64,000 nt of DNA from Candidatus Poribacteria bacterium. GTDB lineage: Bacteria; Poribacteria; WGA-4E; WGA-3G. Shown here piece after piece: positions 11,508 through 50,401 of the stretch (position 1 is its first letter; each line of letters opens with the position of its first letter). The notes under the pieces are model-generated. The model worked only from the letters and a program-made list of their open reading frames with translations, ran no database searches and had not been told where the DNA came from. The stretch lies in assembly GCA_965205015.1 (NCBI GenBank), contig OZ242029.1, forward strand, positions 4,064,001 to 4,128,000, given 5' to 3'. The position numbers were made by a program, and so were the translations under genes.

Positions 11508-11511
11508 CCTA

Positions 11512-25690: not shown

Positions 25691-26695
25691 ATGAACAGAC
25701 CACCAGAAGCCTTCGTTCACGTAGACGAAGAGCGTTTGCTTAACTTTTCTACCGCTTGTTTTGAAAAAGCTGGTATTACACACGAACACGCCGCACTCAT
25801 CAGCCGCTTGCTCGTCAATTCCGACTTACGGGGTGTCCGGAGTCACGGTACCCGAACCGTCAACGGATATTGTGGCGGTTTTGAAAACGGGAGTTTCAAT
25901 CCCAACCCCGATATCCGTGTCATCCGTGAAACGCCAACCGCTGTCGTGTTGGATGGCAACGGTACCCTCGGCTATCTCCCGATGGTGCGCGCCACCGAAC
26001 ACGCCATCGCCAAAGCGAAAGAGGTCGGCATCGGGATGGGGCTCGTCCGCTACATTGGACACTACGGATCTGCAGGACACTATGCGCGTATCTGTAACGA
26101 AGCCGGGTGTATCGGTTTTTCAGTGCAGGGGTATCAGAACCAAGGCAACGCTGAAAACCAAGACCCGAAACCGCAACTCGGCTACTACGGCAATCCACCC
26201 ATCTGTTTCGCGATCCCCGCTAACGAGGAACCCCCGGTCGTGCTGGATGCCGCAACCTGTATCATGGCGGATTACCAACGCGGTCCCGATTTCGATACCC
26301 TGCTTTCGATGATACCAGCGGCTTTCTTCAAGAGCGTCGGCTACACCGCCGTCGCGAGTCTGCTCGGGGGTGCTTTAACCGGTTTCACTGAACCCCCACC
26401 CGAAGATACCGCAAAATGGGGTGGGGCAGGCATGGGCGGAATGGTGCTCGCTATAGACATCGAATCCGTTGTGCCATCTGCTGTTTTCCACGCCGAAGTC
26501 GACCGCATGGTGCATGATGTTCGTGAAACTTACGAACCGATGCCGGGGACAGACAGAGCGCTCCTACCGGGTGCGATCGAAACGGAGCGCACGGAACAGC
26601 ATCGTCGTGACGGCATCCGTTACGGTGAGATGGAACAGGAATCCGCCCGCGGAGTCAGTGAACGGTTAGGGGTGCCACTCCCTTGGGACGAATAA
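25691..26695 (+). CDS. Ldh_2 family (malate/L-lactate/ureidoglycolate-type) dehydrogenase, copy 1
   Basis: SDLRGVRSHG, GHYGSAGHYA, GNPPICFAIP, LDAAT, LLPG.E. Confidence 0.85.
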   Translation: MNRPPEAFVHVDEERLLNFSTACFEKAGITHEHAALISRLLVNSDLRGVRSHGTRTVNGYCGGFENGSFNPNPDIRVIRETPTAVVLDGNGTLGYLPMVRATEHAIAKAKEVGIGMGLVRYIGHYGSAGHYARICNEAGCIGFSVQGYQNQGNAENQDPKPQLGYYGNPPICFAIPANEEPPVVLDAATCIMADYQRGPDFDTLLSMIPAAFFKSVGYTAVASLLGGALTGFTEPPPEDTAKWGGAGMGGMVLAIDIESVVPSAVFHAEVDRMVHDVRETYEPMPGTDRALLPGAIETERTEQHRRDGIRYGEMEQESARGVSERLGVPLPWDE

Positions 26696-26714
26696 CCTTG
26701 CTCAGGAGGAAAAC

Positions 26715-27716
26715 ATGAATAGACCACCAGAAGCTTTCGTCGTCGTAGATGAGGAACGACTTCTCAACTTCTCTACCGCTTGCTTTGAGAAAGCCGGCGT
26801 TCCCCATGAACACGCCGCACTCATCAGCCGCTTGCTCGTCAATTCCGACTTACGGGGTGTCCGCAGTCACGGCACGCAGACTGTGAATCGGTATTGTGCA
26901 GGCTTTGAAAACGGAAACCTCAACCCGAACCCGGATATCCGCATCATCCATGAGACACCGACTGCTGTTGTGCTTGATGGCAACGGCACGCTCGGCTATC
27001 TCCCGATGGTGCGTGCCACCGAACACGCCATCGCCAAAGCGAAAGCGGTCGGCATCGGAATGGGACTCGTTCGTTACATTGGACACTACGGGTCTGCAGG
27101 GCATTATGCACGTATGTGTAACGAAGCCGGATGCATCGGTTTTTCGGTCCAAGGATCCCGGAACCACGGCAATGCCGGAAACCAAGACCCGAAACCGCAA
27201 CTCGGCTACTACGGCAACCCACCCATCTGTTTCGCCATTCCCTCCGATGAGGAACCCCCGGTTGTGCTGGATGCTGCAACCTGTATCATGGCGGATTACC
27301 AACGCGGTCCCGATTTCGATGCCCTGCTTTCGATGATACCCGCTGCTTTCTTCAAGAGTATTGGCTATACCGCCGTGGCACACCTCCTTGGTGGTGGACT
27401 CACCGGCTTCACGGAACCCCCACCGGAGGACACCGCAAAATGGAAACCTCCACAAGGTGGAATGGTCCTCGCCATAGATATCGAATCCGTTGTACCACTT
27501 GATGTTTTCCGTGCCGAAGTCGATCGGATGGTGCACGACGTTCGTGAAACATACGAACCGATGCCGGGAACCGACAAGGCACTCCTACCCGGAGCAATTG
27601 AAACGCAACGCACAGAACTGCATCGGCGTGAAGGCATCCGTTACGGGGAAGCGGAACAGGAATCCGCACGTGCGGTCAGTAAACGTTTAGGCGTGCCACT
27701 CCCTTGGGACGAATAA
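26715..27716 (+). CDS. Ldh_2 family dehydrogenase, copy 2
   Basis: Close tandem paralog of 25691..26695. Confidence 0.85.
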   Translation: MNRPPEAFVVVDEERLLNFSTACFEKAGVPHEHAALISRLLVNSDLRGVRSHGTQTVNRYCAGFENGNLNPNPDIRIIHETPTAVVLDGNGTLGYLPMVRATEHAIAKAKAVGIGMGLVRYIGHYGSAGHYARMCNEAGCIGFSVQGSRNHGNAGNQDPKPQLGYYGNPPICFAIPSDEEPPVVLDAATCIMADYQRGPDFDALLSMIPAAFFKSIGYTAVAHLLGGGLTGFTEPPPEDTAKWKPPQGGMVLAIDIESVVPLDVFRAEVDRMVHDVRETYEPMPGTDKALLPGAIETQRTELHRREGIRYGEAEQESARAVSKRLGVPLPWDE

Positions 27717-27724
27717 CTTTTATC

Positions 27725-27847
27725 GGACTTACGCAGGCCGCTCTTTTGTAGCATAGGAGACCTTTAGTTTCCTCTGCTACGAGAACGTCTGCGTTTTTTA
27801 TACGCGCGCTCATGGCACCGGCGTTGATCAAAATTGCGTCCATCCTG
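27725..27847. repeat. Degenerate GGACTTACGCA-bounded element with GTAG...CTAC hairpin
   Basis: GGACTTACGCA start, TGCGTCCATCCT end, interior GTAGCATAGGA...TCCTCTGCTAC; compare 38194-38394. Confidence 0.5.
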
Positions 27848-28125
27848 TTTTATACTGTTGTAGAAGAAAGAAAATCAAAAAACAGATGAGATTTTCATTG
27901 TCTTTTTTTGGAAAATGTTGCATACTTTCTTACAGGATTTTTGGATACCCCAAGATAGCCTGTCTATATGACATTGCCAAAACACGTGTTCCAGTAGCAG
28001 TGATCTCCGAATCGCGACACTCAACAGAAAATCGGTAGAAAACCGAAAACTGAATGGCTCTGGAAGAGGGTACCTAATATACTATTTTTTATCTTTGAGT
28101 TTTACATTTTAAGAAAGGTTTCGTT

Positions 28126-30831
28126 ATGCACACTCCTATTAAAACCAGATTTTTATTTTACACATTCACATTGCTTATATGCCTCAATTCCTTTTTCATA
28201 AGGAACACCGCTGCACAAGTCAGCGATGAACCCGTTGTCGCACCCGCCAATGCCAACTATACCTTTGAGACGATCGACGTTCCCGGTGTAGACTTCTTAG
28301 CAGTGACGGCAAGTAGCGACTTTGAGGACTACGCCGGCAACACCCCGAGTGCGGATGGTGAAAAAATGGTCGGTTTTACACTCATTGATGGCGTTTTTAC
28401 CACCCACGATTTCCCTGGGGCACAAGGCACGTATTTCTATGCGCTCGGTAATAATGGGGTCGCCGCTGGACACTACCAGGATAGCAACGGACTGTACCAC
28501 GGTGTCATCTTAGGAGAAGATGGTGAGTTGCGGCAATACGATTTTCCAGGTGCCGTCGAAACCCAAATCTTCGGTTATAGTGACGCCACCGGGAGACTGA
28601 CGGGTAATTTTACAGATACGTCCGGCGTTCGTCGTGGATTCTCAGGAGAGACAATAATTGAGTTCCCGGGGGCAACGGAAACTTATGCCGATTTTGTGAG
28701 CAGCTTAGGAAATGTCGTGGGTAGCTACGTAGATGCTGAAGGTACATATCATGCATACCTACGGGGTCCGAGCGGTAGTTTTGCAACATTCGACCTTCCA
28801 CTCGAAGGAGAGTTGGACTACTTTTTTCTCCACGGTCTCAACGATAGAGTGATTGCTGTTGGCCGCGCCAAACCGGTAGAGGGTGTCCCGCGCACTTATG
28901 TCGGCAACTTCCTCAACCTACAAGAATTACGGGTTCCGGATAGCGTTGGCACAGAGGGGTGGAATGTCAATCAGGACGGTTCCGTCGTCGGACACTATGA
29001 CTCCGCCGATGGGCGCAGACACGGATTTATTGCAAGACCCGTCCAGGACACTGCCCCACCAGTTAGCAATAGACGATCTGGCGCACCGCCCGGCTTTACT
29101 TTTGAGAGTATTGATGTTCCGGGTGTAGCGTTTTTAGCGTTGACGGCGAGTAGCGACTTTGAGGATTACGCTGGCTACACGAAAAGTGCCGATGGTGAAA
29201 AAATGGTCGGTTTTACGCTCATTGATGGGGTTTTTACCACTTATGATTTCCCGGGTTCGCAGAACACCTATTTCTATGCGCTCGGTAATAATGGGGTCGC
29301 CGCCGGACACTACGAGGATAGCGAAGGTCTCTACCACGGTGTCATCCTACAAGATGGCGAGTTGCGCCAATACGATTTCCCAGGTGCTGTTGAAACCCAA
29401 ATCTTCGGTTATAGTGATGCGACGGGTGCACTGACGGGTAATTTCATAGATGCTTCGGGTGTTCGCCGTGGTTTCTCAGGAGATTCAATAATTGAAGTCT
29501 CCGGAGCATCAACAACTTATGCCAATTTTGTGAATTGGACAGGCAATATCGTGGGTAGCTATGCTGATGCTGCAGGCATATATCACGCATACGTACGGGG
29601 TCGGACGGGTAGGTTTGTATATATCGACCTTCCAACAGTACTCAATCTGGAATACTTTTTTCTCCACGGTAACAACGAATCAAGAAGTGTCGTTGGCCGC
29701 GCGAAAGAGGTGGGGGATGTCCCGCGCACTTATGTCGGCAATCCCCTTAATCTACGTGAGTTGCGGTTTCCGGGCAGCGTTAGCACGGAGGGCTGGAATA
29801 TCAATCAGGACGACTCTGTCGTTGGGTACTACGACTCACCGGATGGGCGCAGACACGGGTTCATCGCAAAACCCGCTGATGAGACAGAGAGCCATCATTT
29901 TGGCAACTTCTACACTGTTACGCTCTCAAAAGGGTTGAACATGCTCTCTGTACCACTGGCATCTCCAACACCGATGAATGCGAAATCACTCGTCGCTATG
30001 GCAGGGGCGACAACCATCATCAGGTTTGATGCGCCAAACCAAAAATTCGTTGCGTGGACCCCAGATGCACCCAATGATGGTTTCTCAATTGAGGGTGGAC
30101 ACGGCTATATCGTTAATGTTCCAGAAACTCGTAACTTCGCCTTCGTCGGCGCACCGTGGACGGATCCAGTTCCAGAAACAACGGAGGTTTCCGCTGCCGC
30201 ACCCTCTGCGCTCTCTACAGGGAATCCCCAAGCAGCGTGGGCATTCGTTGTGAGTGGGAATTTGGCAGGCAAACCCGCACTTCTTGACGGATACAAAGTC
30301 ATCGTCCGCAATCTGAGAACAAACACCACCATAACCGCCGCAGTGCAAGGCGATTACTTCGCCGCCGCAACTGCCGATTTACAAAAACGGAGCGTCGTCC
30401 AAGTTGGAGACGTGGTTGAGCTGCGCGTTATCGGTCCGAGTGGAAACTTTGAATCACAAACTGTGAGTTTTGAAGTGACCCCTGAACATTTGGCGAACGC
30501 TGTTCTATCTGTCAGACTTGATGGCATAGGTCAACCGGAACAGAACCTGTTGCTACAGAACTACCCGAATCCGTTCAACCCTGAGACTTGGATTCCCTAT
30601 CAACTCTCGGAAGGCAGTCCCGTATCAATATCCATATACGATACAACAGGTAAGTTAGTTCGCACGCTTTCGCTGGGTTTTCAATCCGCGGGCTTCTACA
30701 ATAGTCAGGGACGTGCGGCGTATTGGGATGGGCGCAATGCCCTCGGGGAACGTGTTGCGAGTGGTATCTATTTCTACCAGCTGACAACCCCCTCCTTCCA
30801 GCAAACACGGCGGCTCGTCATTCTAAAGTAA
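28126..30831 (+). CDS. Secreted protein: 2 HAF-like propeller modules + shared stalk + CTD
   Basis: Signal peptide; two ~270-aa units YTFETIDVPG...GRRHGFIARP; LSKGLNMLSVPL, AWAFVVSG, QNYPNPFNPETWIPYQL. Confidence 0.88.
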   Translation: MHTPIKTRFLFYTFTLLICLNSFFIRNTAAQVSDEPVVAPANANYTFETIDVPGVDFLAVTASSDFEDYAGNTPSADGEKMVGFTLIDGVFTTHDFPGAQGTYFYALGNNGVAAGHYQDSNGLYHGVILGEDGELRQYDFPGAVETQIFGYSDATGRLTGNFTDTSGVRRGFSGETIIEFPGATETYADFVSSLGNVVGSYVDAEGTYHAYLRGPSGSFATFDLPLEGELDYFFLHGLNDRVIAVGRAKPVEGVPRTYVGNFLNLQELRVPDSVGTEGWNVNQDGSVVGHYDSADGRRHGFIARPVQDTAPPVSNRRSGAPPGFTFESIDVPGVAFLALTASSDFEDYAGYTKSADGEKMVGFTLIDGVFTTYDFPGSQNTYFYALGNNGVAAGHYEDSEGLYHGVILQDGELRQYDFPGAVETQIFGYSDATGALTGNFIDASGVRRGFSGDSIIEVSGASTTYANFVNWTGNIVGSYADAAGIYHAYVRGRTGRFVYIDLPTVLNLEYFFLHGNNESRSVVGRAKEVGDVPRTYVGNPLNLRELRFPGSVSTEGWNINQDDSVVGYYDSPDGRRHGFIAKPADETESHHFGNFYTVTLSKGLNMLSVPLASPTPMNAKSLVAMAGATTIIRFDAPNQKFVAWTPDAPNDGFSIEGGHGYIVNVPETRNFAFVGAPWTDPVPETTEVSAAAPSALSTGNPQAAWAFVVSGNLAGKPALLDGYKVIVRNLRTNTTITAAVQGDYFAAATADLQKRSVVQVGDVVELRVIGPSGNFESQTVSFEVTPEHLANAVLSVRLDGIGQPEQNLLLQNYPNPFNPETWIPYQLSEGSPVSISIYDTTGKLVRTLSLGFQSAGFYNSQGRAAYWDGRNALGERVASGIYFYQLTTPSFQQTRRLVILK

Positions 30832-30930
30832 GGGTCATCCGTACCTACTTTTTTAAGGCGAGCTCACGTAATTTTAAATACAAAACAAGCAAGTCCCAGC
30901 GGGACGGCATGTCTATAGAAAGGTTTCGTT
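30832..30930 (+). repeat. Duplicated intergenic spacer with REP-like hairpin, copy 1
   Basis: Nearly identical to 33628-33727; GTCCCAGCGGGAC-GGCATGTCTATAG. Confidence 0.9.
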
Positions 30931-33627
30931 ATGCATATTCATATTAAAAAAACCAGCATTTTATTTTACATGTTTACGTTGTTCATGTGCCTCAATTTCT
31001 TTTTCCTAAGGAACACCGCCGCACAAGACAACGCTGAACCCGCTGACGCACCTGCCAGTGACACCTATACTTTTGAGACGATTGAGGTTCCGGGTGTAGA
31101 CTTCTTAGCACTGACGGCGAGTAGCGACTTTGAGGACTACGCTGGCTACACGAAAAGTGCCGATGGTGAAAAAGACGTCGCCTTTACCCTCATTGATGAC
31201 GTTTTTACGACCTATGAGTTCCCGGACGCACAGAATACTTATTTCTACGCGCTCGGTAATGATGGGCGCGCTGCGGGCTACTACGAAGATAGCGAGGGTT
31301 TGCACCACGGTGTTATCTTGGAAAATGGCGAGTTACGTCAATACGATTTCCCTGATGCTGTGCAAACAGAGATATACGGTATTTCTGATGCGACGGGCGT
31401 ATTGACGGGTAATTGGATAGATGCTGCGGGTGTTCGGCGTGGATTTACAGGAGACACCATCCTTGAGTTTCCCGGGGCAATAGCAACATTCGCCGATTTT
31501 GTCAACTCGGATGGTAATTTGTTTGCCAGCTACATAGATGCTAACGGGGTATTTCAAGAATACGCATATTCCTCGGATGGCAGGTATGTAGCTTTTGAAC
31601 TCACAAATGCAGAAAACCTTGAATTCTTTTATGTCCATGGTGTTAACGATGCATTAGTAAGGATCGCCCGAGGTAAAGTGTTCGGTGATGTCATTCGCAC
31701 GTATCTGGGTACATTTACTGACGGTCTACGAGAATTGAAGGTTCCGGACAGTGTTAGCACACAAGGTTATAATATCAATCAGGATGGCTCTGTTGTCGGG
31801 TTCTATGACTCCCCTGATGGACGGAGACACGGGTTTATCGCCAAACCCATTGAAGTCGTTAATCAACCCGTTTTCCAAATCAGTGGTTTCAACTATACTT
31901 ACGAGAGTATTGATGTGCCGGGCGTAGATTTTTTAGCATTGACGGCGAGTTCTGACTTTGAAGATTATGCGGGTTACACGAAAAGTGCCGATGGCGAAAA
32001 AATGGTCGCCTTTACCCTCATTGATGGTGTTTTTAAGACGTATGATTTTCCGGGTTCACAGAACACCTATTTCTATGCCCTCGGTAATGATGGACGTGCT
32101 GCCGGACACTACGAGGATAGCGAGGGGCGCCACCGCGGTATCATCCTACAAGATGGCGAGTTACACCCATACGATTTTCCGGGATCCGTTGAAACGGAGC
32201 TATGGGGTATCAGTGATGCGACGGGGAATCTGACGGGTAATTGGACAGATGCTTCGGGCGTGCGTCGCGGATTCACCGGGGACATCATCGTTGAGTATCC
32301 GGGGGCAGTGGAAACTTATGCCGATTTTATCAACGCGTTAGGGGGTATGTTTGGTAGCTACGTAGATGACGAAGGGACATATACGCCATACCTACGCGCA
32401 CCGGATGGCAGGTATGTATCTTTCACCCCTCCAACCCAAGAAACTTATGAATTCTTTTTTGTGCACGGTTTCACCGATACAAAGATTTCCGTTTCCCGAG
32501 GCAAAGTGGTCGGCGAGGTCACCCGCACTTATGTCGGTACATTCCTTGGGGGGCTTCATGAATTGAAAGTTCCTGGCAGCGTTAGAACGGAAGGCTACAA
32601 TATCAATCAGGACGCTTCTGTGGTTGGGCACTATGACTCCCCTGATGGACGTAGACACGGATTTATTGCCAGACTCGGTACCGAGGAAGAAAGCGATGCT
32701 TTCAGCAATGCTTACACCGTCTCGCTGTCCAAAGGCTTGAACATGCTTTCTGTGCCACTGGCACCGCCAACACCGATGACTGCCAAGAACCTTGTCGCGA
32801 TAACAGGGGCGACAACCATCATCAGGTTTGATGCGCCAAACCAGAAATTCGTGGCATGGACACCGGATGCACCCAATGATGGTTTCTCAATTGAAGGTGG
32901 ACACGGCTATATCGTTAATGTCCCACAAGCCCGAAACTTCGCATTCGTCGGCGCACCGTGGACGGATCCAATGCCAAAAACAACGGAAGTCGCTGCCGCA
33001 CCCTCTGCGCTCTCTGCAGGGAATCCTCAAACAGCGTGGGCATTCGTTGTGAGTGGGCATTTGGCAGGCAAACCCACACTTGACGGATACAAAGTCATCG
33101 TCCGCAATCTGAGAACAAACACCACCATAACCGCCGCAGTGCAAGGCGATTACTTCGCCGCCGCAACTGCCGATTTACAAAAACGGAGCGTCGTCCAAGT
33201 TGGAGACGTGGTTGAGCTGCGCGTCATCGATCCCAGTGGAAACTTTGAATCACAAACTGTGAGTTTTGAAGTGACCCCTGAACATTTGGCGAATGCTGTT
33301 CTATCTGTCAGGCTTGATGGCATTGGTAGACCGGCGCAGAACTTGTTGCTACAGAACTATCCGAATCCGTTCAACCCTGAGACATGGATTCCGTATCAAC
33401 TCTCGGAAGGCAGTCCAGTATCAATATCCATATACGATACAACAGGTAAGTTAGTTCGCACGCTTTCGCTGGGTTTTCAATCCGCGGGCTTCTACAATAG
33501 TCAGGGACGTGCGGCGTATTGGGATGGGCGCAATGCCCTCGGTGAACGCGTTGCGAGTGGTATCTATTTCTACCAGTTGACGACCCGCTCCTTCCAGCAG
33601 ACACGGCGACTCGTCATTCTAAAGTAA
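30931..33627 (+). CDS. Secreted protein: 2 HAF-like propeller modules + stalk + CTD
   Basis: Paralog of 28126..30831 with near-identical C-terminal ~300 aa. Confidence 0.88.
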   Translation: MHIHIKKTSILFYMFTLFMCLNFFFLRNTAAQDNAEPADAPASDTYTFETIEVPGVDFLALTASSDFEDYAGYTKSADGEKDVAFTLIDDVFTTYEFPDAQNTYFYALGNDGRAAGYYEDSEGLHHGVILENGELRQYDFPDAVQTEIYGISDATGVLTGNWIDAAGVRRGFTGDTILEFPGAIATFADFVNSDGNLFASYIDANGVFQEYAYSSDGRYVAFELTNAENLEFFYVHGVNDALVRIARGKVFGDVIRTYLGTFTDGLRELKVPDSVSTQGYNINQDGSVVGFYDSPDGRRHGFIAKPIEVVNQPVFQISGFNYTYESIDVPGVDFLALTASSDFEDYAGYTKSADGEKMVAFTLIDGVFKTYDFPGSQNTYFYALGNDGRAAGHYEDSEGRHRGIILQDGELHPYDFPGSVETELWGISDATGNLTGNWTDASGVRRGFTGDIIVEYPGAVETYADFINALGGMFGSYVDDEGTYTPYLRAPDGRYVSFTPPTQETYEFFFVHGFTDTKISVSRGKVVGEVTRTYVGTFLGGLHELKVPGSVRTEGYNINQDASVVGHYDSPDGRRHGFIARLGTEEESDAFSNAYTVSLSKGLNMLSVPLAPPTPMTAKNLVAITGATTIIRFDAPNQKFVAWTPDAPNDGFSIEGGHGYIVNVPQARNFAFVGAPWTDPMPKTTEVAAAPSALSAGNPQTAWAFVVSGHLAGKPTLDGYKVIVRNLRTNTTITAAVQGDYFAAATADLQKRSVVQVGDVVELRVIDPSGNFESQTVSFEVTPEHLANAVLSVRLDGIGRPAQNLLLQNYPNPFNPETWIPYQLSEGSPVSISIYDTTGKLVRTLSLGFQSAGFYNSQGRAAYWDGRNALGERVASGIYFYQLTTRSFQQTRRLVILK

Positions 33628-33727
33628 GGTCCATCCGTACCTACTTTTTTAAGGCGAGCTCACGTAATTTTAAATACAAAACAAGCAAGCCCCAGCGGGG
33701 CGGCATGTCTATAGAGAGGTTTTCATT
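33628..33727 (+). repeat. Duplicated intergenic spacer with REP-like hairpin, copy 2
   Basis: GCCCCAGCGGGGC-GGCATGTCTATAG; matches 30832-30930. Confidence 0.9.
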
Positions 33728-36700
33728 ATGCATACTCAGATTAAAACCAATTTTTTATTTTACACGCTTACGTTGTTCATGTGCCTCAATTGCGTTTTCG
33801 TAGGAAGAACCGCCGCACAAGACAACGCTGAATCCACTGAGGCACCCGCCAGTGACAACTACACTTTTGAGACGATCGACGTTCCGGGCGTAGCGTTCTT
33901 ACAGTTGAGTGCCAGTAGCGACTTTGAGGATTACGCCGGCAGCACGCGGAGTGCGGATGGCGAAAAAATAGTCGCCTTTACGCTCATTGATGGTGTTTTT
34001 AAAACCTACGATTTCCCGGGTTCAAAAAATACTTATTTCTTTGCGCTCGGTAATAATGGCGACGCTGCCGGACACTACGAGGATAGCGACGGTCTATTCC
34101 ATGGGGTTGTCTTGAGAGATGGTGAATTGCAGCAATTCGATTTCCCGGGTGCTGTTGAGACGGAACTCTGGGGTATTAGTGATTCAACCGGCGCACTAAC
34201 GGGTAATTTTATAGATGCGTCTGGCATCCGTCGCGGATTCACAGGAGACGAAATTATTGAGTTCCCTGGGGCATCGGAAACGTATGCCGATTTTGTGAAC
34301 TCGAGCGGAGGGATGGTCGGCAGCTACGTAGACGCTGACGGTCTATATCATCCATACATACGTACGCCGACTGGCAGGTTTGTCCCTCTCAAGCTTCCAA
34401 GAGCAGCAAGTCTGGAATACTATTTTGTGCACGGTATCAACGATGCAAATGTGGTCGTTTCACGAGCCAAACCGGTGGATGGTGTCCCGCTCACTTATGT
34501 CGGCTCATTCCAAGAGGGGCTAAAGGAATTTAAAGTTCCGGGCAGTGTGAGCACGGAAGGCTATAATATCAATCAGGACGGTTCAATCGTCGGGCACTAT
34601 GATACAGCAGATGGACGCAGACACGGGTTCATCGCTAGACCCATAACGGACACCGCTGCACCCGTTGAGGATCAACCTGTTGCCACACCTGCTGATCTCA
34701 ACTATACCTTTGAGAGTATTGATGTTCCGGGTGTAGACTTTTTAGCGTTGGCGGCGAGTAGCGACTTTGAGGATTACGCTGGCTACACGAAAAGTGCTGA
34801 TGGTGAAAAAGAGGTCGCCTTTACGTTGATAGATGGGGTTTTTACAACCTACGATTTCCCCGGCTCACAGAGTACTTATTTCTTTGCGCTCGGTAATGAT
34901 GGACGAGCTGCAGGACATTACCAAGATAGCGAGGGTCTCTACCATGGTGTCGTTTTAGAAGATGGCGAGTTACGGCAATACGATTTTCCGGGTGCCGTCG
35001 AAACAGAGATATATGGCATCAGTGATGCAACAGGGGCATTGACGGGTAATTTCACAGATGCGTCTGGTGTTCGGCGTGGATTCTCAGGGGAGACAATAGT
35101 TGAAGCTCCCGGGGCACCGGAAACGTATGCCGATTTTATAAACGCGAGTGGTCGTATGGTGGGCAGCTACATAGATGCTGACGGCATATATCATCCATAC
35201 ACGCGTAGCTCGGAGGGCAGGTTTATATCTCTCAAACTCCCACAAGCAGCACAATTTGAATACTTTTTTGTGCACGGTATCAACGACGTAGGGGTTCTCG
35301 TTGGCAGATCCAAACGAGTCGGTGGTGTCCCGCGCACCTACGTCGGCTCATTCCAGCATGGGCTACATGAATTGGAGTTTCCGGGCAGCGTTAGCACGGA
35401 GGGGTGGAACATCAATCAGGACGGCTCTGTTGTCGGGCACTATGATTCAGTCGATGGACGCAGACACGGGTTCATTGCCAGACCCGCAACGGACACTGCT
35501 GCACATGCCGACCCTCAGCCCGTTGTTACACCGACTGAACCTGTAGTTGAAGCCGGCGACTCCAACTACACATTTGAGAGTATTGATGTTCCGGACGTAG
35601 ACTTTTTAGAGTTGACGGCGAGTAGCGACTTTGGGGATTACGCGGGGAACACCCGGAGTGCTGATGGTCAAAAAATCGTCGGCTTTACACTCATTGATGG
35701 CGTTTTTACGACTTACGATTTTCCCGGTTCGCAGAACACTTATTTCTATGCCCTCGGTAACAATGGACAAGCCGCAGGACACTATGAGGATAGCGACGGT
35801 CTTCATCATGGTGTCATCTTAGAAAACGGCGAGTTGAGGCAATATGATTTTCCGAGTGCCGTCGAAACGTTCCTCTACGGTATCTCTGATGCGACGGGTG
35901 CCCTGACGGGTAATTTTATAGATGCTTCGGGGGTGCGTCGAGGTTTCACAGGGGACGAAATTATTGAGGTCCCTGGTGCCTTGGAAACGTATGCCGATTT
36001 CGTGAGCGCGGGTCGGCTCGTCGGCAGCTACATAGATGCTTCGGGTATATATCATGCCTACATACGTTCTCCACAAGGCAAGTATACATCTATTGAGCTG
36101 CCAGACGGACCGAAGCTGGCGTACTATTTTCTGCACGGTATCAATGATGCAGGGACTTACGTTGCCCGCGCGAAAGTCGTGGATGATATTCCGCGGACAT
36201 ACGTCGGCACATTCACCGGGCGGGAGGAGTTGCGTTTTCCGGGCAGTGTCAGTACACAGGGTTATAATATCAATCAAGACGGCTCTATCGTCGGAAACTA
36301 TGACACTTCTGATGGACGCAGACACGGGTTCATCGCCAGACCTGCTGGAGGGATGGCTGCGCAACCGGTTGTCCCTACCAGTTTCAACTATACTTTTGAG
36401 AGTATTGCTGTTCCGGGAGTCGCCTATTTACAGTTGACAGCAAGTAGCGACTTTGAGGATTACGCCGGCAACACGCGGAGTGCTGACGGTGAAAAAATCG
36501 TCGGCTTTACGCTCATTGATGGCGTTTTTACAACCTACGATTTCCCCGGCTCACAGAACACTTTTTTCTATGCACTGGGTAACAACGGTCAAGCCGCCGG
36601 ACACTACGAAGATAGCAACGGCCTGTTCCACGGGGTCATCTTAGAAAACGGCGAGTTAAGGCAATATGATTTCCCGGGTGCCGTTGAGACGGAGATATAC

Positions 36701-38119
36701 GGTATCTCTGATGCGACCGGTGCCTTGACGGGAAATTTTATAGATGCTTCGGGTATACGTCGCGGCTTCTCTGGAGAGACCATCGTTGAGTTTCCCGGTG
36801 CCACAGCAACTTATGCCGATTTTATCGCCGCGGGTCGGCTCGTCGGCAGCTATGTAGATGCTGAAGGTGTATATCGTCCCTACATACGTGATACCGATGG
36901 CAAGATGAGATCTATTAACATCCCAGCAGCAGAAAATATGGAGTACCTCTTTTCGCACGGTATCAATGATGCGGGGGTTTCCGTCAATCGTGCAAAAGTC
37001 GTGGATGATATTCCGCGGACATACGTCGGCACACTCCAAGGATTCCATGAGTTGCGTTTTCCGGGCAGCGTTAGCACGGAGGGGTGGAATATCAATCAGG
37101 ACGGCTCCGTCGTCGGACACTATGACTCACCCGATGGACGGAGGCACGGGTTCATCGCCAGACCTGTTGATGCGGCAGAGAGCACTCAGTTTGGCAACTT
37201 CTACACCGTTACGCTGTCTAAAGGGTTGAACATGCTTTCTGTGCCGTTAGCACCTGCAACGCCGATGACTGCCAAGGCACTTGTCGCGATGGCAGGGGCG
37301 ACAACTATCATCAGGTTTGATGCGCCAAATCAGAAATTCGTGGCGTGGACACCAGATGCACCCAATGATGGTTTCTCAATTGAAGGCGGAAAAGGTTATA
37401 TCGTCAATGTCCCAGAAACCCGAAACTTCGCTTTCGTCGGTGCACCGTGGACGGATCCAATGCCAAAAACAACGGAGGTTTCCGCTGCCGCACCCTCTGC
37501 CATATCCACGGAGATGCCGCAAGCAGCGTGGGCATTCGTTGTGAGTGGGCATTTGGCAGGCAAACCCGCGTTCAATGGATACCAAGTCAGCGTCCGTAAC
37601 CTGAGAACCAACCGCATCATAACCGCATCCTTGCAAGGTGATTACTTCGCTGCTGCAACTGCCGACTTAACGCGGCGAAGCGTCGTCCAAGTTGGAGACG
37701 TGATTGAATTACGCGTCATCGGTCCGGGTGGAAACGCTGAATCGCAACCTCTCACTTTCAAAGTGACCCCTGAGCATCTTGCGAATGCGGTCTTGTCTGT
37801 CAGGCTTGATGGCATCGGTCAACCGCAGCAGAATCTCTTGTTGCAGAACTACCCGAATCCGTTTAACCCGGAGACATGGATTCCATACCAACTCTCGGAA
37901 GACAGTCCCGTATCGATATCCATATACGATACAACGGGTAAGTTGGTTCGCACGCTTTCACTCGGTTTCCAATCCGCAGGTTTTTACAATAGTCAGGGAC
38001 GTGCGGCGTATTGGGATGGACGCAATGCCCTTGGGGAACGCGTTGCGAGTGGTATCTATTTCTACCAGTTGACGACCCCCTCCTTCCAGCAGACACGGCG
38101 ACTCGTCATTCTAAAGTAG
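33728..38119 (+). CDS. Secreted protein: 4 HAF-like propeller modules + stalk + CTD
   Basis: Four NYTFE(T/S)I units beginning near 33857, 34700, 35564, 36386 with P/T/A-rich linkers. Confidence 0.88.
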   Translation: MHTQIKTNFLFYTLTLFMCLNCVFVGRTAAQDNAESTEAPASDNYTFETIDVPGVAFLQLSASSDFEDYAGSTRSADGEKIVAFTLIDGVFKTYDFPGSKNTYFFALGNNGDAAGHYEDSDGLFHGVVLRDGELQQFDFPGAVETELWGISDSTGALTGNFIDASGIRRGFTGDEIIEFPGASETYADFVNSSGGMVGSYVDADGLYHPYIRTPTGRFVPLKLPRAASLEYYFVHGINDANVVVSRAKPVDGVPLTYVGSFQEGLKEFKVPGSVSTEGYNINQDGSIVGHYDTADGRRHGFIARPITDTAAPVEDQPVATPADLNYTFESIDVPGVDFLALAASSDFEDYAGYTKSADGEKEVAFTLIDGVFTTYDFPGSQSTYFFALGNDGRAAGHYQDSEGLYHGVVLEDGELRQYDFPGAVETEIYGISDATGALTGNFTDASGVRRGFSGETIVEAPGAPETYADFINASGRMVGSYIDADGIYHPYTRSSEGRFISLKLPQAAQFEYFFVHGINDVGVLVGRSKRVGGVPRTYVGSFQHGLHELEFPGSVSTEGWNINQDGSVVGHYDSVDGRRHGFIARPATDTAAHADPQPVVTPTEPVVEAGDSNYTFESIDVPDVDFLELTASSDFGDYAGNTRSADGQKIVGFTLIDGVFTTYDFPGSQNTYFYALGNNGQAAGHYEDSDGLHHGVILENGELRQYDFPSAVETFLYGISDATGALTGNFIDASGVRRGFTGDEIIEVPGALETYADFVSAGRLVGSYIDASGIYHAYIRSPQGKYTSIELPDGPKLAYYFLHGINDAGTYVARAKVVDDIPRTYVGTFTGREELRFPGSVSTQGYNINQDGSIVGNYDTSDGRRHGFIARPAGGMAAQPVVPTSFNYTFESIAVPGVAYLQLTASSDFEDYAGNTRSADGEKIVGFTLIDGVFTTYDFPGSQNTFFYALGNNGQAAGHYEDSNGLFHGVILENGELRQYDFPGAVETEIYGISDATGALTGNFIDASGIRRGFSGETIVEFPGATATYADFIAAGRLVGSYVDAEGVYRPYIRDTDGKMRSINIPAAENMEYLFSHGINDAGVSVNRAKVVDDIPRTYVGTLQGFHELRFPGSVSTEGWNINQDGSVVGHYDSPDGRRHGFIARPVDAAESTQFGNFYTVTLSKGLNMLSVPLAPATPMTAKALVAMAGATTIIRFDAPNQKFVAWTPDAPNDGFSIEGGKGYIVNVPETRNFAFVGAPWTDPMPKTTEVSAAAPSAISTEMPQAAWAFVVSGHLAGKPAFNGYQVSVRNLRTNRIITASLQGDYFAAATADLTRRSVVQVGDVIELRVIGPGGNAESQPLTFKVTPEHLANAVLSVRLDGIGQPQQNLLLQNYPNPFNPETWIPYQLSEDSPVSISIYDTTGKLVRTLSLGFQSAGFYNSQGRAAYWDGRNALGERVASGIYFYQLTTPSFQQTRRLVILK

Positions 38120-38193
38120 GGGCCACCCGTATAAAACTAACAGGTGTCACAGGGATGCTATCGGCGTAACTGTGACACTTCTTTAAACCTAAT

Positions 38194-38394
38194 AGGACTT
38201 ATGCAGCTTGCTCATTTTCGTGCGACCTTTGGTTCGTAGTCGCGCAATGGCGCAAGTCGCGTGTGGACTTGCGGTTAACCATCAACTCGCCTCCGATACA
38301 ATATTCAAAGGAAACCCGAGTTGATGGTTAAAATGCGCATTCTTGTGTTCTAAATAATCAATTTCGTCGTGGAATCCAAATTTGCGTAAGTCCT
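38194..38394. mobile_element. MITE-like element with AGGACTTA(C/T)GCA terminal inverted repeats
   Basis: AGGACTTATGCA ... TGCGTAAGTCCT (11/12 match). Confidence 0.6.
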
Positions 38395-38621
38395 GCCCAA
38401 AAAAAGATGTGTAAGTTCTAACCTGCCGAATTGCCTCCTTCACCCATTTGTTTTTCCGATTCTTAGGGATCAATAAAAATTGCTCAATATCACAGAAAAG
38501 TGCTATAATATCCATAGCGCGCGCGTTTCCATACCGGTTTAAGTGCCTCATTATACTATAGGCGTTCCTCCTTGGAATCACAGCTACATTTACATCAAAC
38601 TCAAGTTAAAAAAGGATAGCT

Positions 38622-40439
38622 ATGAATCACAAAATCAAAACGAAACTTCCCTTGTTCATAAGTCTAATTATCTGTTTCACGGGATATGCCCTTGCACAGG
38701 TTGAAACCGAAATACCGATTGCGGATTACACCTTCGAAACCATCGAAGTGCCGGGCATCGATTTTCTGGAGGTGGCCGCAAGTAACGACTTCGGAGACTA
38801 CGCCGGGAACACCCGAACCCCTGACGGTGAGAAAACCATCGGTTTCACGTTGATAGATGGTGTGTTTACAACCTACGATTTCCCGGATTCCCTGAATACC
38901 TATTTCTATGCACTCGACAACGCTGGAAAAGCAGCCGGACACTACAAAGATATGGATGGACTTTACCACGGTGTCATCATGGAAGATGGGGAACTCACGC
39001 AATACGATTTTCCCGGTGCAGCCGAAACCCACATCTACGGTCTTAGCGATGAAACAGGGGCACTGAGCGGTAATATTGTTGATGAAACAGGTGCCACTCG
39101 CGCCTTTTCAGGCGATCTGATAATTACGGTCCCTGGTGCGGTCACAACTTATGGGGACTTCGTCAACGCCGCAGGTGCTGTCGTTGGGAGCTACGTGGAT
39201 GCCGATGGAAGGCCTCATGGGTTCATACGTAACCCCGACGGCAGTTTCACCACTATTGACGTTCCAGAAATGCCAAATCTTGAATTCCTATTTGTAAACA
39301 CCATCACCGATTTCGGTGTTGTCGCTTTCAGAGCGAAAGCTGTAAATGATATTCTGCGGTCCTATATCCTCCTGCCAGATGGTATCCTCTATGAAGTGCG
39401 GCTCCCAGGCAGTGTGAACACCGTCGTCCGAAATGTGAATCAGGATGGGAGTATTATCGGTTATTACGACTTAACAGACAGGCGTAGATACGGCTTCGTC
39501 GGTAGACCGACACCACAATCAGATGGGAAAAATTTGGGTAATATCTTCTCCATGCACCTCTCTAAAGGCTTGAACCTGTTGTCTGTGCCGTTGAAACCAA
39601 CTGTCTACATGACAGCACGCTCGCTCGCAGTCAAGACAGGCGCGACAGCCGTTGTTATGTTTGATGCCGCGAACCAACGGTTCGTCGGATGGACGCCAAA
39701 CGCACCCGACGACGGATTCCCCATTGAAGGCGCAAGAGGATATATCGCCAATCTACCAGAAGCTCGTGATGTCGTTTTCACTGGGACAAAGTGGACAAAT
39801 CAGATGGAGGTCGCTGCAGCACCGATTGCAACGCCTCTCAATCAGACGTGGGCCTTCGTCGTCAACGGGTATTTAGGAGGCACACAACGCTTCAACGGGT
39901 ATCTCGTCACAATCCGAAACACACGGACGAACACTACCATGACAGCGCGGGTGCGCGGTAATTACTTTGCCGCTGCGACTGCCGATCTCAACTACCGCAG
40001 CGTTGTGGAAGTCGGGGATAGGTTAGAATTAACCGTAACGGACACACACGGAAACATCGCTTCAGAAAGATTCAATTTCACGGTGAATCCGATGAATCTG
40101 GCAAACGCCGCTCTGAATGTGACGCTGGATGGCATCGGGACACCGAAACAGAATCTTCTGTTGCAGAACTATCCGAACCCTTTCAATCCTGAGACGTGGA
40201 TACCCTATCGGCTTTCAGAGGGCGGTGACGTGTTCTTGTCCATCTATGACACAAAAGGCGCGCGCATCCGAACGCTTTCGCTCGGCTATCAGTCCGCGGG
40301 TTTCTATCAGGATCAAGGACGTGCCGCCTATTGGGATGGGCGCAACGACTTAGGGGAACCGGTTGCAAGTGGGGTCTATTTTTACCAACTGACAACGGCA
40401 TCTTTCCAGCAAACCCGGCGGATGCTTATTTTCAAATAG
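38622..40439 (+). CDS. Secreted protein: 1 divergent HAF-like propeller module + stalk + CTD
   Basis: Single DYTFETIEVPG unit, LSKGLNLLSVPL, TWAFVVNG, CTD. Confidence 0.88.
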   Translation: MNHKIKTKLPLFISLIICFTGYALAQVETEIPIADYTFETIEVPGIDFLEVAASNDFGDYAGNTRTPDGEKTIGFTLIDGVFTTYDFPDSLNTYFYALDNAGKAAGHYKDMDGLYHGVIMEDGELTQYDFPGAAETHIYGLSDETGALSGNIVDETGATRAFSGDLIITVPGAVTTYGDFVNAAGAVVGSYVDADGRPHGFIRNPDGSFTTIDVPEMPNLEFLFVNTITDFGVVAFRAKAVNDILRSYILLPDGILYEVRLPGSVNTVVRNVNQDGSIIGYYDLTDRRRYGFVGRPTPQSDGKNLGNIFSMHLSKGLNLLSVPLKPTVYMTARSLAVKTGATAVVMFDAANQRFVGWTPNAPDDGFPIEGARGYIANLPEARDVVFTGTKWTNQMEVAAAPIATPLNQTWAFVVNGYLGGTQRFNGYLVTIRNTRTNTTMTARVRGNYFAAATADLNYRSVVEVGDRLELTVTDTHGNIASERFNFTVNPMNLANAALNVTLDGIGTPKQNLLLQNYPNPFNPETWIPYRLSEGGDVFLSIYDTKGARIRTLSLGYQSAGFYQDQGRAAYWDGRNDLGEPVASGVYFYQLTTASFQQTRRMLIFK

Positions 40440-40469
40440 TAACATCCAGACCTTGGTTGGCATACTGCT

Positions 40470-40491
40470 GGCGAGGTTCCCTAACCTCGCC
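40470..40491. repeat. GGCGAGG-type palindromic repeat, copy 3 (possible 3' hairpin)
   Basis: GGCGAGGTT-ccct-AACCTCGCC 30 nt after a stop codon. Confidence 0.75.
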
Positions 40492-40519
40492 GCTTAAGTC
40501 TGTCAAACACACGTGAACA

Positions 40520-41623
40520 ATGCAATATCAATGCGGCAAATGCAGCAACACCTATCAGATCTCACCGTTGCGCTATAAGTGCGACTGTGGAAACCCACTG
40601 AACCTCGTCAGAGATTCACGCGTAATCCCGAATCCACAGGTCCCAGGGGCGATGTCGCTCTGGCGGTATCGCGAAGCACTACCGATCGGTGAGGAGACAG
40701 AGATTGTCACGCTCGGTGAAGGCATGACCCCGCTTGTTCCACTTGACGTTAATGCTCCTGAACACTTCGCAAAATTGGATTATCTCTGTCCGACCGGTTC
40801 CTATAAGGATCGAGGGGCATCTGTCCTACTGACGCACCTCAAATCACTTGGTGTGGATACGATTGTTGAAGATTCATCGGGCAACGCGGGTGCCGCGATA
40901 GCCGCCTACAGCGCGAGGGCAGGCATTCACTGCACTATCTACTGTCCTGCGGCCACTTCAAAAGGTAAATTGAGACAGATTTCCGCTTACGGTGCCGAGT
41001 TAAAACTGGTGGCAGGCAACCGTATGGCAACGACGGAAGCCGTAAAACTCGCCGCGGAGACCACCTGTTATGCTTCTCATAACTGGCACCCGTTTTTCTT
41101 GGAAGGCACAAAGACGCTCGCGTATGAGATTACCGAACAACTCGGGTGGCGTGCACCGACACATGTCTTGTGTCCAGTCGGGTTCGGGAGCATTTATCTC
41201 GGACTCGCTATCGGATTTCGTGAATTGCAGACCCAAGGGATTATTGAAGGCATCCCTCGACTTCTCGGGGTTCAATCCGATGTTTGTTGCCCAATCCACA
41301 ACGCGTATGTTGAAACCCTAACGTCAATCTCAAGAATGCAGCAAACTGGAGACACACTTGCTGAGGGTATTACCGCTGAGCTCCCCATCCGAGGCGACAA
41401 TATTTTGGAGGCACTCCATTTCTCGAACGGTGCATTTACCACAGTCAACGACACAGACATTAAGGAAGGCATGAAACTGCTTGCCGCCAAAGGGATGTAT
41501 GTGGAACCTACGTCTGCTGTGATCGTTAAAGCGTATCAGAAGTTCAAAGCGTCAGGTATCATCCAAGAAGGTGATATGACAGTCTCGATCCTCACCGGTA
41601 TCGGTTTAAAGGCGAGTAAGTAA
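40520..41623 (+). CDS. Threonine synthase-like PLP-dependent enzyme with N-terminal Zn ribbon
   Basis: CxxC..CxC, LGEGMTPL, PTGSYKDRG (PLP lysine), DSSGNAG, VEPTSA, LTGIGLK. Confidence 0.85.
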   Translation: MQYQCGKCSNTYQISPLRYKCDCGNPLNLVRDSRVIPNPQVPGAMSLWRYREALPIGEETEIVTLGEGMTPLVPLDVNAPEHFAKLDYLCPTGSYKDRGASVLLTHLKSLGVDTIVEDSSGNAGAAIAAYSARAGIHCTIYCPAATSKGKLRQISAYGAELKLVAGNRMATTEAVKLAAETTCYASHNWHPFFLEGTKTLAYEITEQLGWRAPTHVLCPVGFGSIYLGLAIGFRELQTQGIIEGIPRLLGVQSDVCCPIHNAYVETLTSISRMQQTGDTLAEGITAELPIRGDNILEALHFSNGAFTTVNDTDIKEGMKLLAAKGMYVEPTSAVIVKAYQKFKASGIIQEGDMTVSILTGIGLKASK

Positions 41624-43416: not shown

Positions 43417-43791
43417 ATGGATCATGATAGGATGAACTTAAGAGAAGCTATATGGATAGGGGATTCTAAGACGAGACTGAAGGAATTTCCGCAGCCCATC
43501 CAAAAAGATATTGGCGACGCTTTATTTGTTGCCCAGGCTGGAAGTATGTCTCCAATGGCGAAACCATTTAAAGGCGTTGGCTCAGGGGTTTTTGAGATAC
43601 GATCGGATTATCGGACTGATACTTATCGCGCCGTATATGCGGTGAAGATTGGAGAGCGAGTTTACGTGCTGCATTGTTTTCAAAAGAAATCGAAGCGCGG
43701 AATTAAAACCCCCAAAAAAGAAGTAGACCTTATCAAGAGACGCCTCAGAATGGCGCAAGAACTGGAGGAAAATTATGAGCAAGCAGATTAA
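43417..43791 (+). CDS. Type II TA toxin, RelE/ParE (HigB/Gp49-like)
   Basis: KPFKGVGSGVFEIR, YRAVY, YVLHCFQKKS..TP. Confidence 0.9.
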   Translation: MDHDRMNLREAIWIGDSKTRLKEFPQPIQKDIGDALFVAQAGSMSPMAKPFKGVGSGVFEIRSDYRTDTYRAVYAVKIGERVYVLHCFQKKSKRGIKTPKKEVDLIKRRLRMAQELEENYEQAD

Positions 43792-44098
43792 ATTTGAAAA
43801 GAGTTCAGGCAATGTCTTTAAGGATTTAGACCTGCCAGACGCGGAGGAACTATTTCTTAAAGCGAAGCTTGGGTTTGAAGTGTTTCAAATTATAGAAGAT
43901 CGCAAGTTAACTCAAGTTGAAGCGGCAAAGATTTTAGGTGTGAAGCAGCCCGAGATCTCCAGACTAAAGCAAGGAAGGTTTAATCATTATAGTGTAGAAC
44001 GACTGTTAGCGTTTCTGAACCAATTGAATCGCGATATTGAAATCCGCATTATTCCCTCAGAGGATAGAAAGGGACAACAACGAGTTGTCGCCGTTTAG
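43775..44098 (+). CDS. XRE-family HTH antitoxin (HigA-like)
   Basis: SSGNVFKDL, LTQVEAAKILGVKQPEISRL; overlaps toxin. Confidence 0.9.
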   Translation: MSKQIKFEKSSGNVFKDLDLPDAEELFLKAKLGFEVFQIIEDRKLTQVEAAKILGVKQPEISRLKQGRFNHYSVERLLAFLNQLNRDIEIRIIPSEDRKGQQRVVAV

Positions 44099-50317: not shown

Positions 50318-50401
50318 CCCCATGCCGGTCAGGGTGGTTTTGCATAGTAGTAGGCACACTCCGTGTGCCGTAACTCCAGACCCGGTATGTTCGGTTTCCT
50401 A

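Follow-up and report, generated by a model that had tools for sequence, protein, structure and literature searches.

A tandem array of HAF-like propeller proteins, probably surface-displayed, on a shared stalk and T9SS-type tail in Candidatus Poribacteria

The window analysed here is a 64-kb stretch of a Candidatus Poribacteria genome (contig OZ242029.1), and our subject is a tandem array of four genes, all on the + strand, that occupies its positions 28126-40439. The four products share one plan: a signal-peptide-like leader, one to four copies of a propeller module of the HAF-repeat kind, a stalk, and a C-terminal domain (CTD) belonging to type IX secretion systems (T9SS). From module to module, two neighbouring blades of the propeller vary strongly, and the others little. 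These products are probably surface-displayed multivalent binding proteins, in which a constant scaffold carries an exchangeable specificity sector.

Results

Four genes and nine modules

Gene 1 (28126-30831, 901 amino acids, or aa) and gene 2 (30931-33627, 898 aa) encode two modules each; gene 3 (33728-38119, 1463 aa), a mosaic gene, encodes four; and gene 4 (38622-40439, 605 aa), a conserved single-module orthologue, encodes one. The original prediction had counted nine modules divided in this way, and a motif scan combined with a module profile, applied to all six frames of the 64 kb, recovers exactly these nine six-bladed HAF-like propellers: g1m1 (28258-29034) and g1m2 (29095-29868) in gene 1; g2m1 (31066-31842) and g2m2 (31894-32670) in gene 2; g3m1 (33860-34636), g3m2 (34703-35479), g3m3 (35567-36337) and g3m4 (36389-37159) in gene 3; and g4m1 (38727-39503) in gene 4.

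All nine are 257-259 aa long. The modules of genes 1-3 are 66-78% identical to each other in protein and 71-80% in DNA, and g4m1 is 52-61% identical in protein to the rest. Within a gene, linkers of 17-29 aa join the modules: their description as rich in P, T and A stands for four of the five and fails for one, the share of P, T, A and V ranging from 0.29 to 0.62.

The leaders lie at 28126-28215 in gene 1 and at 30931-31023, 33728-33817 and 38622-38696 in genes 2-4, all with guessed cleavage sites. In the four proteins they have one to three K or R among the first 9 residues, no D or E among the first 25, and a hydrophobic 12-mer with a mean Kyte-Doolittle (KD) value of 2.3-2.5; residues 3-20 form a helix in the model of gene 4. 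They are presumably Sec-type signal peptides, cleaved after A-A or A-L-A.

A six-bladed propeller of the HAF kind

Each module had been described as about six subrepeats of some 42 aa. Cutting at the repeated 'PG' motif indeed gives six pieces of 40-46 aa with one shared motif. The AlphaFold2 model of gene 4, built with 59 relatives, folds the head, residues 31-296 of the 605-aa protein, into 24 strands that make six four-stranded blades, with block-mean values of the predicted local distance difference test (pLDDT) of 83-97. As read from the strand order of this model, the module is predicted to close as a six-bladed ring through its N-terminal strand. The stalk half of the same model is poor (pLDDT <50), and the stalk was modelled separately.

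The best Foldseek match to the head is the PknD sensor (1rwi, E 3.7e-7, TM score 0.64 by target). With VIA-align, the head reaches Z 17-20 against solved six-bladed propellers over 207-264 residues; for 1rwi, Z is 19.5 and the root-mean-square deviation (rmsd) 3.1 over 239 aligned residues. The plateau at Z 17-20 mixes sialidases, PknD, TolB, fishelectin (Z 17.5) and tectonin (Z 17.2): such a plateau reflects a generic likeness of fold, and points to no family.

A family does appear in sequence comparisons. Module g3m2, compared by phmmer with 1.84 billion representatives, matches 13,584 proteins at E<=1e-3, 4,301 at <=1e-10 and 67 at <=1e-30, with identity falling to 30-40% outside the close family. 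Sixteen of these matches were scanned, and 13 pass the HAF-repeat model TIGR02913 (35-137 bits; phmmer E 1e-26 to 1e-46); the HAF relatives scanned differ in architecture, an RHS protein and one of the choice-of-anchor D type being among them. In the array itself, the NCBIfam scan, which took genes 1 and 4, gives gene 1 a TIGR02913 score of 28.0 bits, for one repeat at residues 281-301, above the cut-off of 22.65, and gene 4 a score of 19.9 bits, below it. Among the four proteins, only that of gene 3 matches DUF3466 (PF11949), at 17.9 bits, under the gathering threshold of 25.1; atlas neighbours of the module include DUF3466 clusters at 0.95, a lead only. No Pfam family covers the module in the four proteins, and no NHL repeat is among their Pfam matches at E<=0.1. 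Homology to TIGR02913 members and the six-blade model together bear out the HAF-like propeller of the original prediction: the module is a divergent HAF-repeat six-bladed beta-propeller.

Two variable blades

Columns 140-229 of the module alignment correspond to blades 4 and 5. When the eight modules of genes 1-3 are compared pairwise (28 pairs), the nonsynonymous divergence dN is 0.38-0.39 in these columns versus 0.08-0.17 in columns 1-139 and 230-260, and its ratio to the synonymous divergence, dN/dS, is 0.49-0.52 in blades 4-5 versus 0.07-0.15 elsewhere. The pattern that had been noticed, a conserved first half and last subrepeat around a variable penultimate part, is the one that these values describe.

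The wider family behaves in the same way. In 455 modules of multi-module proteins, mean entropy is 1.44 bits in blade 4 and 1.66 in blade 5, versus 0.56-0.72 in the others, and in 81 single-module orthologues it is flat (0.24-0.47). Variation is thus far from evenly spread, being concentrated in two neighbouring blades; within them, entropy peaks in the 5C-5D loop (2.67 bits) and in the 4D-5A connection (2.45), and next come the 4A-4B and 4C-4D loops (2.09 each) and strand 4D (2.07). The median identity among the 455 modules is 53% for sectors versus 79% for cores, and single linkage at 80% identity sorts the sectors into 119 types and the cores into 9. Since the largest clusters of sectors unite 56, 53 and 38 modules, sector types recur across proteins.

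Orthologues, compared between two genomes, complete the picture. Three of the four pairs have blade 4-5 values of dN/dS of 0.20, 0.21 and 0.14; in the fourth, which joins g3m1 to gene C of the related genome and is the mosaic pair, it is 0.44. A ratio of about 0.2 implies that the sector is constrained once fixed, since plain drift would not hold it there. In our view, these low orthologue ratios speak more strongly than any other result for a function of the sector, putatively one that differs from module to module.

Duplication, exchange and conversion

Genome-level comparisons use four relatives, G001-G004, and a set of genomes from the phylum. The nearest relative is G001, where the corresponding locus, L001, holds two genes of two modules each (900 and 898 aa, in this order), then two DUF1670 genes on the opposite strand, and after these a one-module gene of 633 aa and the orthologue of gene 4. 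The tandem DUF1670 pair (L001 6021-7729) lies inside the array of G001 and has no counterpart in the window, and the gene that follows it has one module where the window has four. Downstream of gene 4, both genomes continue with a PALP enzyme and an NAGPA-like gene. Over the 4.7 kb between gene 4 and NAGPA, both included, the two share 85.6% identity, whereas genes 1-3 are just 72-84% identical to any gene of G001, and in patchwork.

A tree of the modules makes those of gene 1 orthologous to those of the second array gene of G001 (support 100/99 and 89/85). It also pairs modules within genes: the two of gene 2 (96/95), those of a distant G001 gene (98/98), and g1m1 and g1m2, which group together with their orthologues (94/91). 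Modules of the same gene are thus often nearest kin, a sign of duplication or homogenisation within genes.

The stalks have a different history. Between the window and G001, dS is 0.53-0.66 for flanking orthologues, and 0.47-0.66 for flanks and orthologous modules together. For the stalks, it is 0.24 between gene 1 and gene 2, 1.31 between gene 1 and its own orthologue, and 0.41 between the first two stalks of G001. In the alignment of genes 1 and 2, the heads are 59-87% identical and the sequence from 30067 onward 91-97%, with an identical run of 146 nucleotides (nt) at 30283-30428, a length that is attained in none of 10,000 permutations of the 87 mismatches in the stalk. Paralogous stalks that are closer than orthologous ones, together with this identical tract, are the mark of gene conversion: the stalks evolve in concert through it.

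Gene 3 shows exchange of another kind. In g3m1, the core is nearest to gene C of G001 (87% of nt) and blades 4-5 to gene A (81%); in g3m2, the sector has its nearest kin in the second module of gene A (84%); and in g3m3, the sector shares 98% identity with that of one protein whose core shares just 87%. Because core and sector have different nearest kin in these three modules, we conclude that the variable sector moves between scaffolds. Gene 3 as a whole has the look of an A-like front fused to a C-like back. Module duplication and shuffling, invoked earlier as the source of diversity, thus agree with both the module tree and the mismatched kinship of cores and sectors.

A shared stalk and export tag

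The tail common to the four proteins is 311-320 aa long and is encoded at 29869-30831 in gene 1 and at 32671-33627, 37160-38119 and 39504-40439 in genes 2-4. It had been called nearly identical in the DNA of genes 1-3, which overstates the case: identity is 91.5% between genes 1 and 2, where some 60-nt windows are 100% identical, 85.8% between 1 and 3, and 85.1% between 2 and 3. Homogenisation is a matter of genes 1-3, and the tail of gene 4 is 65-66% identical to theirs.

The tail of gene 1 (its last 320 aa), modelled on its own with 30 relatives (32-91% identity), has a mean pLDDT of 84.7 and three domains. Domain 1 (29905-30156; stalk residues 13-96; pLDDT 83-95) is of mixed beta structure with one helix; no fold is assigned to it, the fold-search lists being dominated by the CTD and domain 2 and barely covering it. 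A disordered linker at tail residues 100-111 is followed by domain 2 (30241-30534; residues 125-222), a beta-sandwich that resembles CBM41 2j71 (Z 8.3, rmsd 2.7, 87 aligned) and, at about Z 8, FN3-type sandwiches.

The third domain (30538-30828; residues 224-320) is Ig-like and is the T9SS type A CTD, with equivalents at roughly 33334-33624, 37826-38116 and 40146-40436 in genes 2-4. TIGR04183 scores 39.2 bits in gene 1 and 27.5 in gene 4 (cut-off 23), and PF18962 scores 27.1, 28.2, 26.0 and 18.6 bits in genes 1-4 (cut-off 27). The fold matches the CTD of PorU (6za2: Z 10.4, rmsd 2.6, 91 aligned, 21% identity) and, at Z 8.2, those of PorZ and mirolase. These matches support a single export tag for all four proteins, as the original prediction had it.

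The stalk is indeed common to the four genes, and it also carries other heads elsewhere in Poribacteria. A search for the two stalk domains in four Poribacteria genomes gives 50 matches at E<=1e-5. In all 23 ends that were fetched from open reading frames (ORFs) with other heads, stalk and CTD are collinear with those of gene 1 at 27-60% identity, one end being frameshifted; four of these ORFs were scanned, and carry a 5'-nucleotidase, a cohesin with Spondin_N and, in two cases, DUF3108-like heads. Since stalk and CTD also stand under unrelated heads, they form a general pedestal of CTD-tagged proteins in Poribacteria.

In the accessible text of Kamke et al. 2014 (PMC3909097), a Por CTD is reported on many poribacterial repeat proteins, chiefly of the WD40 kind. 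G001 has at least 45 further CTD matches. It also encodes three giant PorU-like ORFs, two of which were scanned (1732 and 2121 aa; L105, L106): they match Peptidase_C25 at 292 and 278 bits, and both have Propeptide_C25 and a CTD of their own. The NF033707 stretches of the C25 ORFs score 250-284 bits, below the cut-off of 420. A predicted sortase-like enzyme is thus encoded in G001. One C25 ORF lies about 20 kb beyond the HAF array, and another precedes a 356-aa ORF with a faint PorV match.

Occurrence in the phylum

A search with gene 1 returns 1,786 relatives among 8,000 scored candidates, and one with gene 4 returns 1,854. Those rows that name an organism (3 of 120 and 6 of 121 listed) all name Candidatus Poribacteria, and databases call the relatives 'hypothetical protein' or 'T9SS type A sorting domain-containing protein'. 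Of 76 loci, L001-L009 belong to Poribacteria, and L001 and L002 alone match the whole 605-aa query. The family is thus found here only in Candidatus Poribacteria.

There it is widespread. In 137 of 175 Poribacteria genomes, one per species, the module matches at E<=1e-40, from 1 to at least 15 times per genome, and in the family of G001, 97 of 111 genomes match at E<=1e-90. The number of modules per gene ranges from one to five, the maximum being a 1739-aa ORF of G112. Among the 120 matches listed for gene 1, proteins with one, two, three and four full modules number 1, 40, 25 and 54, and among the 117 listed for gene 4, those with one and two number 79 and 38; both lists are ranked by score and bounded by length, and these counts are not frequencies. 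The relatives listed for gene 4 are 602-614 aa long and 79-92% identical to it, and among the matches listed in a further search, 84 rows, contributed by 83 genomes, hold its orthologue (69-94% identity). In G002, a block of about 56 kb (contig C2, 2582002-2638226) holds many HAF-module genes, one with an internal stop, and a large part of the 24 module matches of that genome.

The sequencing run whose independent share is highest carries the label of a sponge metagenome, and has contigs in 29 of 30 bins. An RNA run from a sponge (X19), the only one used among the runs of small share (X6-X20), has contigs in 27 of the 30 bins and little or nothing in two flanking bins; as contig depth does not rank genes, this is no more than a weak hint of expression. 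Several contig joints within the array, with sides of 20-31 letters inside repeats, were taken as cross-joins between paralogues.

Spacers and neighbouring genes

The spacer between genes 1 and 2 (30832-30930) is a near-copy of the one between genes 2 and 3 (33628-33727), and the leaders downstream of them are near-identical too. Both spacers contain a 5-bp hairpin (30880-30905 and 33676-33701) whose stem has changed on both sides with pairing kept; on the minus strand, a T-rich run follows it. An Rfam scan of 27000-41000 gives no match at E<=0.1, and PADLOC none on genes 1, 3 and 4. A scan for promoter-like sites (22, with 13.9 expected) and terminator-like sites (10, with 13.1 expected) is uninformative. 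The longer spacer between genes 3 and 4 (38120-38621) has a 99-aa ORF on the minus strand (38282-38581) that matches nothing in Pfam. In the bin 38228-38674, contig depth is 3-7 times that of its neighbours in three DNA-like runs, and many contigs end at 38227-38395; this spacer may hold a repeated element.

Upstream of the array, four WD40 propeller genes of 921, 750, 843 and 738 aa (8669-18704, + strand) bear the same type of CTD and lack the two stalk domains: only positions 187/208-304 of the stalk profile match them, at 168-180 bits. Counting the four HAF genes as well, 32 kb hold eight propeller proteins with a CTD tag. No CTD match is seen in a fifth WD40 gene (670 aa; 23661-25673), and just before the array (25691-27716) stand tandem genes of the Ldh_2 family, malate/L-lactate dehydrogenase-like, of 334 and 333 aa. 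Further downstream, Gp49/HigB-like toxin and HTH_37 antitoxin-like genes (43417-44098) lie between NAGPA and an alcohol dehydrogenase gene, with no counterpart in L001, and at 47243-52007 a TnpB/Cas12f-like gene of 408 aa comes after the gene for a Type ISP restriction-modification enzyme of 1024 aa.

Discussion

How the proteins may work

The following course can be proposed. A Sec-type signal peptide would carry the protein to the periplasm, the C-terminal T9SS type A domain would guide it across the outer membrane, and a PorU-like C25 peptidase would cut off the CTD and anchor the protein at the surface. There, the two stalk domains, one a beta-sandwich and the other of mixed beta structure, and their flexible linker would hold one to four propellers off the cell. 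The propellers would do the work of the protein, most likely as binding modules without catalysis: the constant scaffold would consist of blades 1-3 and 6, and blades 4-5, which differ from module to module, would set what is bound. Three processes change the repertoire: tandem duplication of modules within genes; recombination, which shifts the blade 4-5 sector between scaffolds and alters the number of modules; and gene conversion, which keeps stalk and tag alike.

The results above establish the architecture and its evolution; binding, surface location and export route we infer from them. Binding follows from heads that stand in series without catalytic marks and carry a sector specific to each paralogue and yet conserved; the export route, from a T9SS tag and a C25 peptidase. 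That the ligands are glycans of the host or of particles is a guess.

Several observations weigh against surface-displayed binding proteins. On the side of export, the accessible text of Kamke et al. 2014 (PMC3909097) reports that no Por structural genes were found in Poribacteria. In G001, PorV-like matches, one of them an ORF of 374 aa, score 89.8 bits (cut-off 250) and 26.4 bits (cut-off 27); for a SprA-like ORF of 2282 aa, matching segments in collinear order reach 64, 49, 24 and 19 bits where the cut-off is 200, and a further match reaches 20.9 bits against a cut-off of 27. GldL and GldM have no match in four Poribacteria genomes, a silence that is uninformative, 14 control genomes being equally silent. 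Expression rests on contigs of a single sponge RNA library that may contain DNA.

On the side of binding, the original prediction expected the variability to lie on one face of the propeller. Located by strand order rather than by three-dimensional coordinates, the variable residues instead occupy a two-blade sector that spans loops of both faces, outer strands and rim. The dN/dS of this sector is below 1 between paralogues and gives no sign of positive selection. Lectins (Z 17.2-17.5) rank below sialidases (Z 18-20) among the structural matches, and as all of these lie in the generic six-blade range, the fold cannot separate a binder from an enzyme. Finally, full-text searches, with subscription journals mostly outside their scope, yield no description of binding, ligand or location for any HAF-repeat protein.

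The data invite a bolder conjecture, which we consider possible and rather doubtful: the family would be a recombining receptor repertoire, in which scaffold, pedestal and tag are uniform and more than one hundred types of two-blade cassette are swapped between proteins and stacked one to five deep, for ligands related to host, prey or phage.

Other explanations

The explanation that survives best next to binding is a structural one, unlikely as we judge it: the products would be coat or cohesion proteins whose propellers bind each other, or polymers of their own envelope, and no foreign ligand. High copy number, near-universal presence in the family of G001 and the strong conservation of the single-module member fit such a role. 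So do two structural matches: the CTD model resembles the pentameric S-layer protein 7ptp (Z 9.1, rmsd 2.3, 86 aligned), and Foldseek lists the SlaA/SlaB S-layer assembly. However, 119 distinct sector types would be surprising in a coat protein, and so would numbers of module matches that range between genomes from 1 to at least 15.

There is also a small chance that the propellers are surface-displayed enzymes, such as glycoside hydrolases of the sialidase kind, lactonases or lyases, with blades 4-5 tuning the choice among substrates derived from sponge or particles. Sialidases (2a75, Z 20.0; 2vvz, Z 19.6) head the structural matches, together with other propeller enzymes; Foldseek lists virginiamycin B lyase at E 1.1e-6, and a faint match to it turns up in the sequence search (E 0.056); and in G001 the same stalk bears a 5'-nucleotidase head. 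Yet identity to those enzymes is just 4-9%, for sialidases at Z 18-20 as for the rest, and no Pfam sialidase match accompanies it. Matches of the modules to a characterised enzyme family would have counted against the original prediction, and none was found in Pfam (all four genes) or NCBIfam (genes 1 and 4). By sequence, the Protein Data Bank (PDB) has no relative of the head below E 0.027, the Vgb lyase match being at chance level, and returns otherwise only FlgD-like and PorU-like CTD matches. The Asp-box and the RIP arginine motif of sialidases, both scanned in strict and loose forms, occur in none of the nine modules, which gives no ground for assigning them to GH33. Residues that at least 97% of 536 family modules have in common (G, P, T, D/N and F/Y) recur blade by blade, the pattern expected of a structural repeat, and make up no single catalytic set. 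Up to five heads in series would also be unusual for an enzyme.

A comparably small chance attaches to release: the products would be soluble factors that act on the host, for instance by interfering with phagocytosis, as has been proposed for eukaryote-like repeat proteins in symbionts of sponges. T9SS cargo of Bacteroidota can be released too, and the genes share a block with four WD40 proteins that bear the same CTD. The accessible text of Kamke et al. 2014 (PMC3909097) groups such CTD repeat proteins with eukaryote-like proteins. Nevertheless, a stalk of two domains with a flexible linker suits display better, and HAF repeats belong to a family of bacteria rather than to one of eukaryote-like type.

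Finally, an assembly artefact of a repeated gene is most improbable: short-read contigs do break throughout the array and none spans it, but the modules differ by 20-41% in DNA, every ORF is intact, three DNA-like runs, taken from two studies, have contigs in 29-30 of the 30 bins, the cluster of gene 4 includes a contig of 5.65 Mb, a like array with the same PALP and NAGPA flanks stands in a 5.54-Mb contig of G001, and multi-gene sets occur in three other contigs of 2-6.8 Mb.

Why the array matters

Poribacteria are among the most abundant symbionts of sponges and are uncultivable, and how they come to be recognised or tolerated within the host, or to attach there, is an open question. A family present in most of their genomes, often in many copies, predicted to be at the surface and bearing the imprint of specialised variants that have been kept, is a concrete candidate for the contact of the symbiont with its surroundings, and single modules are small enough to be expressed and tested. 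The HAF superfamily, with 13,584 representative clusters and a scant literature, gains a predicted fold and a testable role. If the receptor repertoire conjectured above is real, it would be a combinatorial system of surface recognition in an uncultivated symbiont; if the export route is real, a T9SS-like sorting route would be at work in a phylum where none has been found so far. The array also reopens a question left by the accessible text of Kamke et al. 2014 (PMC3909097), namely how CTD-tagged proteins leave the poribacterial cell.

Comparison with known systems

The original prediction knew of no function for this architecture, and the full-text literature, with subscription journals and tables S8 and S9 of Kamke et al. 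outside the scope of the search, contains none either, nor any for the HAF family; it has no description of the architecture and no mention of HAF repeats in Poribacteria. In the literature on Poribacteria and T9SS or Por secretion, only Kamke et al. 2014 (PMC3909097) proved relevant. The comparison thus has to be made system by system.

T9SS type A cargo of Bacteroidota, such as gingipains, PorU, PorZ and mirolase, combines an N-terminal signal peptide, to which the predicted leader here would correspond, with an Ig-like CTD such as that of the array, and the likeness extends to the predicted C25 peptidase with its own CTD in the close relative G001. Poribacteria, however, lie outside the groups in which the system has been studied; there, matches to PorV and SprA are weak, and GldL and GldM were not found, with controls silent as well. 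Within the phylum, the WD40-CTD proteins, described in the accessible text of Kamke et al. 2014 (PMC3909097), share the CTD and propeller heads, and four of this kind stand 9-20 kb upstream of the array; their repeats are WD40 and not HAF, a family that this text does not mention, and they lack the two stalk domains.

Among propellers, the PknD sensor of Mycobacterium tuberculosis and the NHL propellers are extracellular, as the modules here are predicted to be, and likewise six-bladed, with about 250 aa made of repeats of some 42 aa. Identity to PknD is only 13-15%, and its propeller is joined to a kinase through a membrane helix, whereas here the propeller is joined to a stalk and an export tag. 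The propeller lectins tectonin 2 and fishelectin are multivalent binders with six blades of similar size (Z 17.2-17.5, rmsd 2.7-2.8, 207-208 residues), but at 12-13% identity the match is no better than that to enzymes.

The closest system is that of the HAF proteins (TIGR02913; DUF3466, PF11949), to which the module is homologous and which, like the proteins of the array, ride on a surface-sorting device. Elsewhere, such devices include choice-of-anchor D, seen among the relatives scanned, and GlyGly-CTERM, as far as the accessible text of PMC3237569 goes, and a HAF repeat surface protein on an autotransporter receives a passing mention for Agrobacterium in that of PMC8685578. The present proteins differ from the HAF family as described in three respects: the TIGR02913 model sees only one repeat per module, where here the closed six-repeat unit, with its variable two-blade sector, is itself repeated one to five times; the unit stands on a stalk; and stalk and CTD are found here only in Poribacteria.

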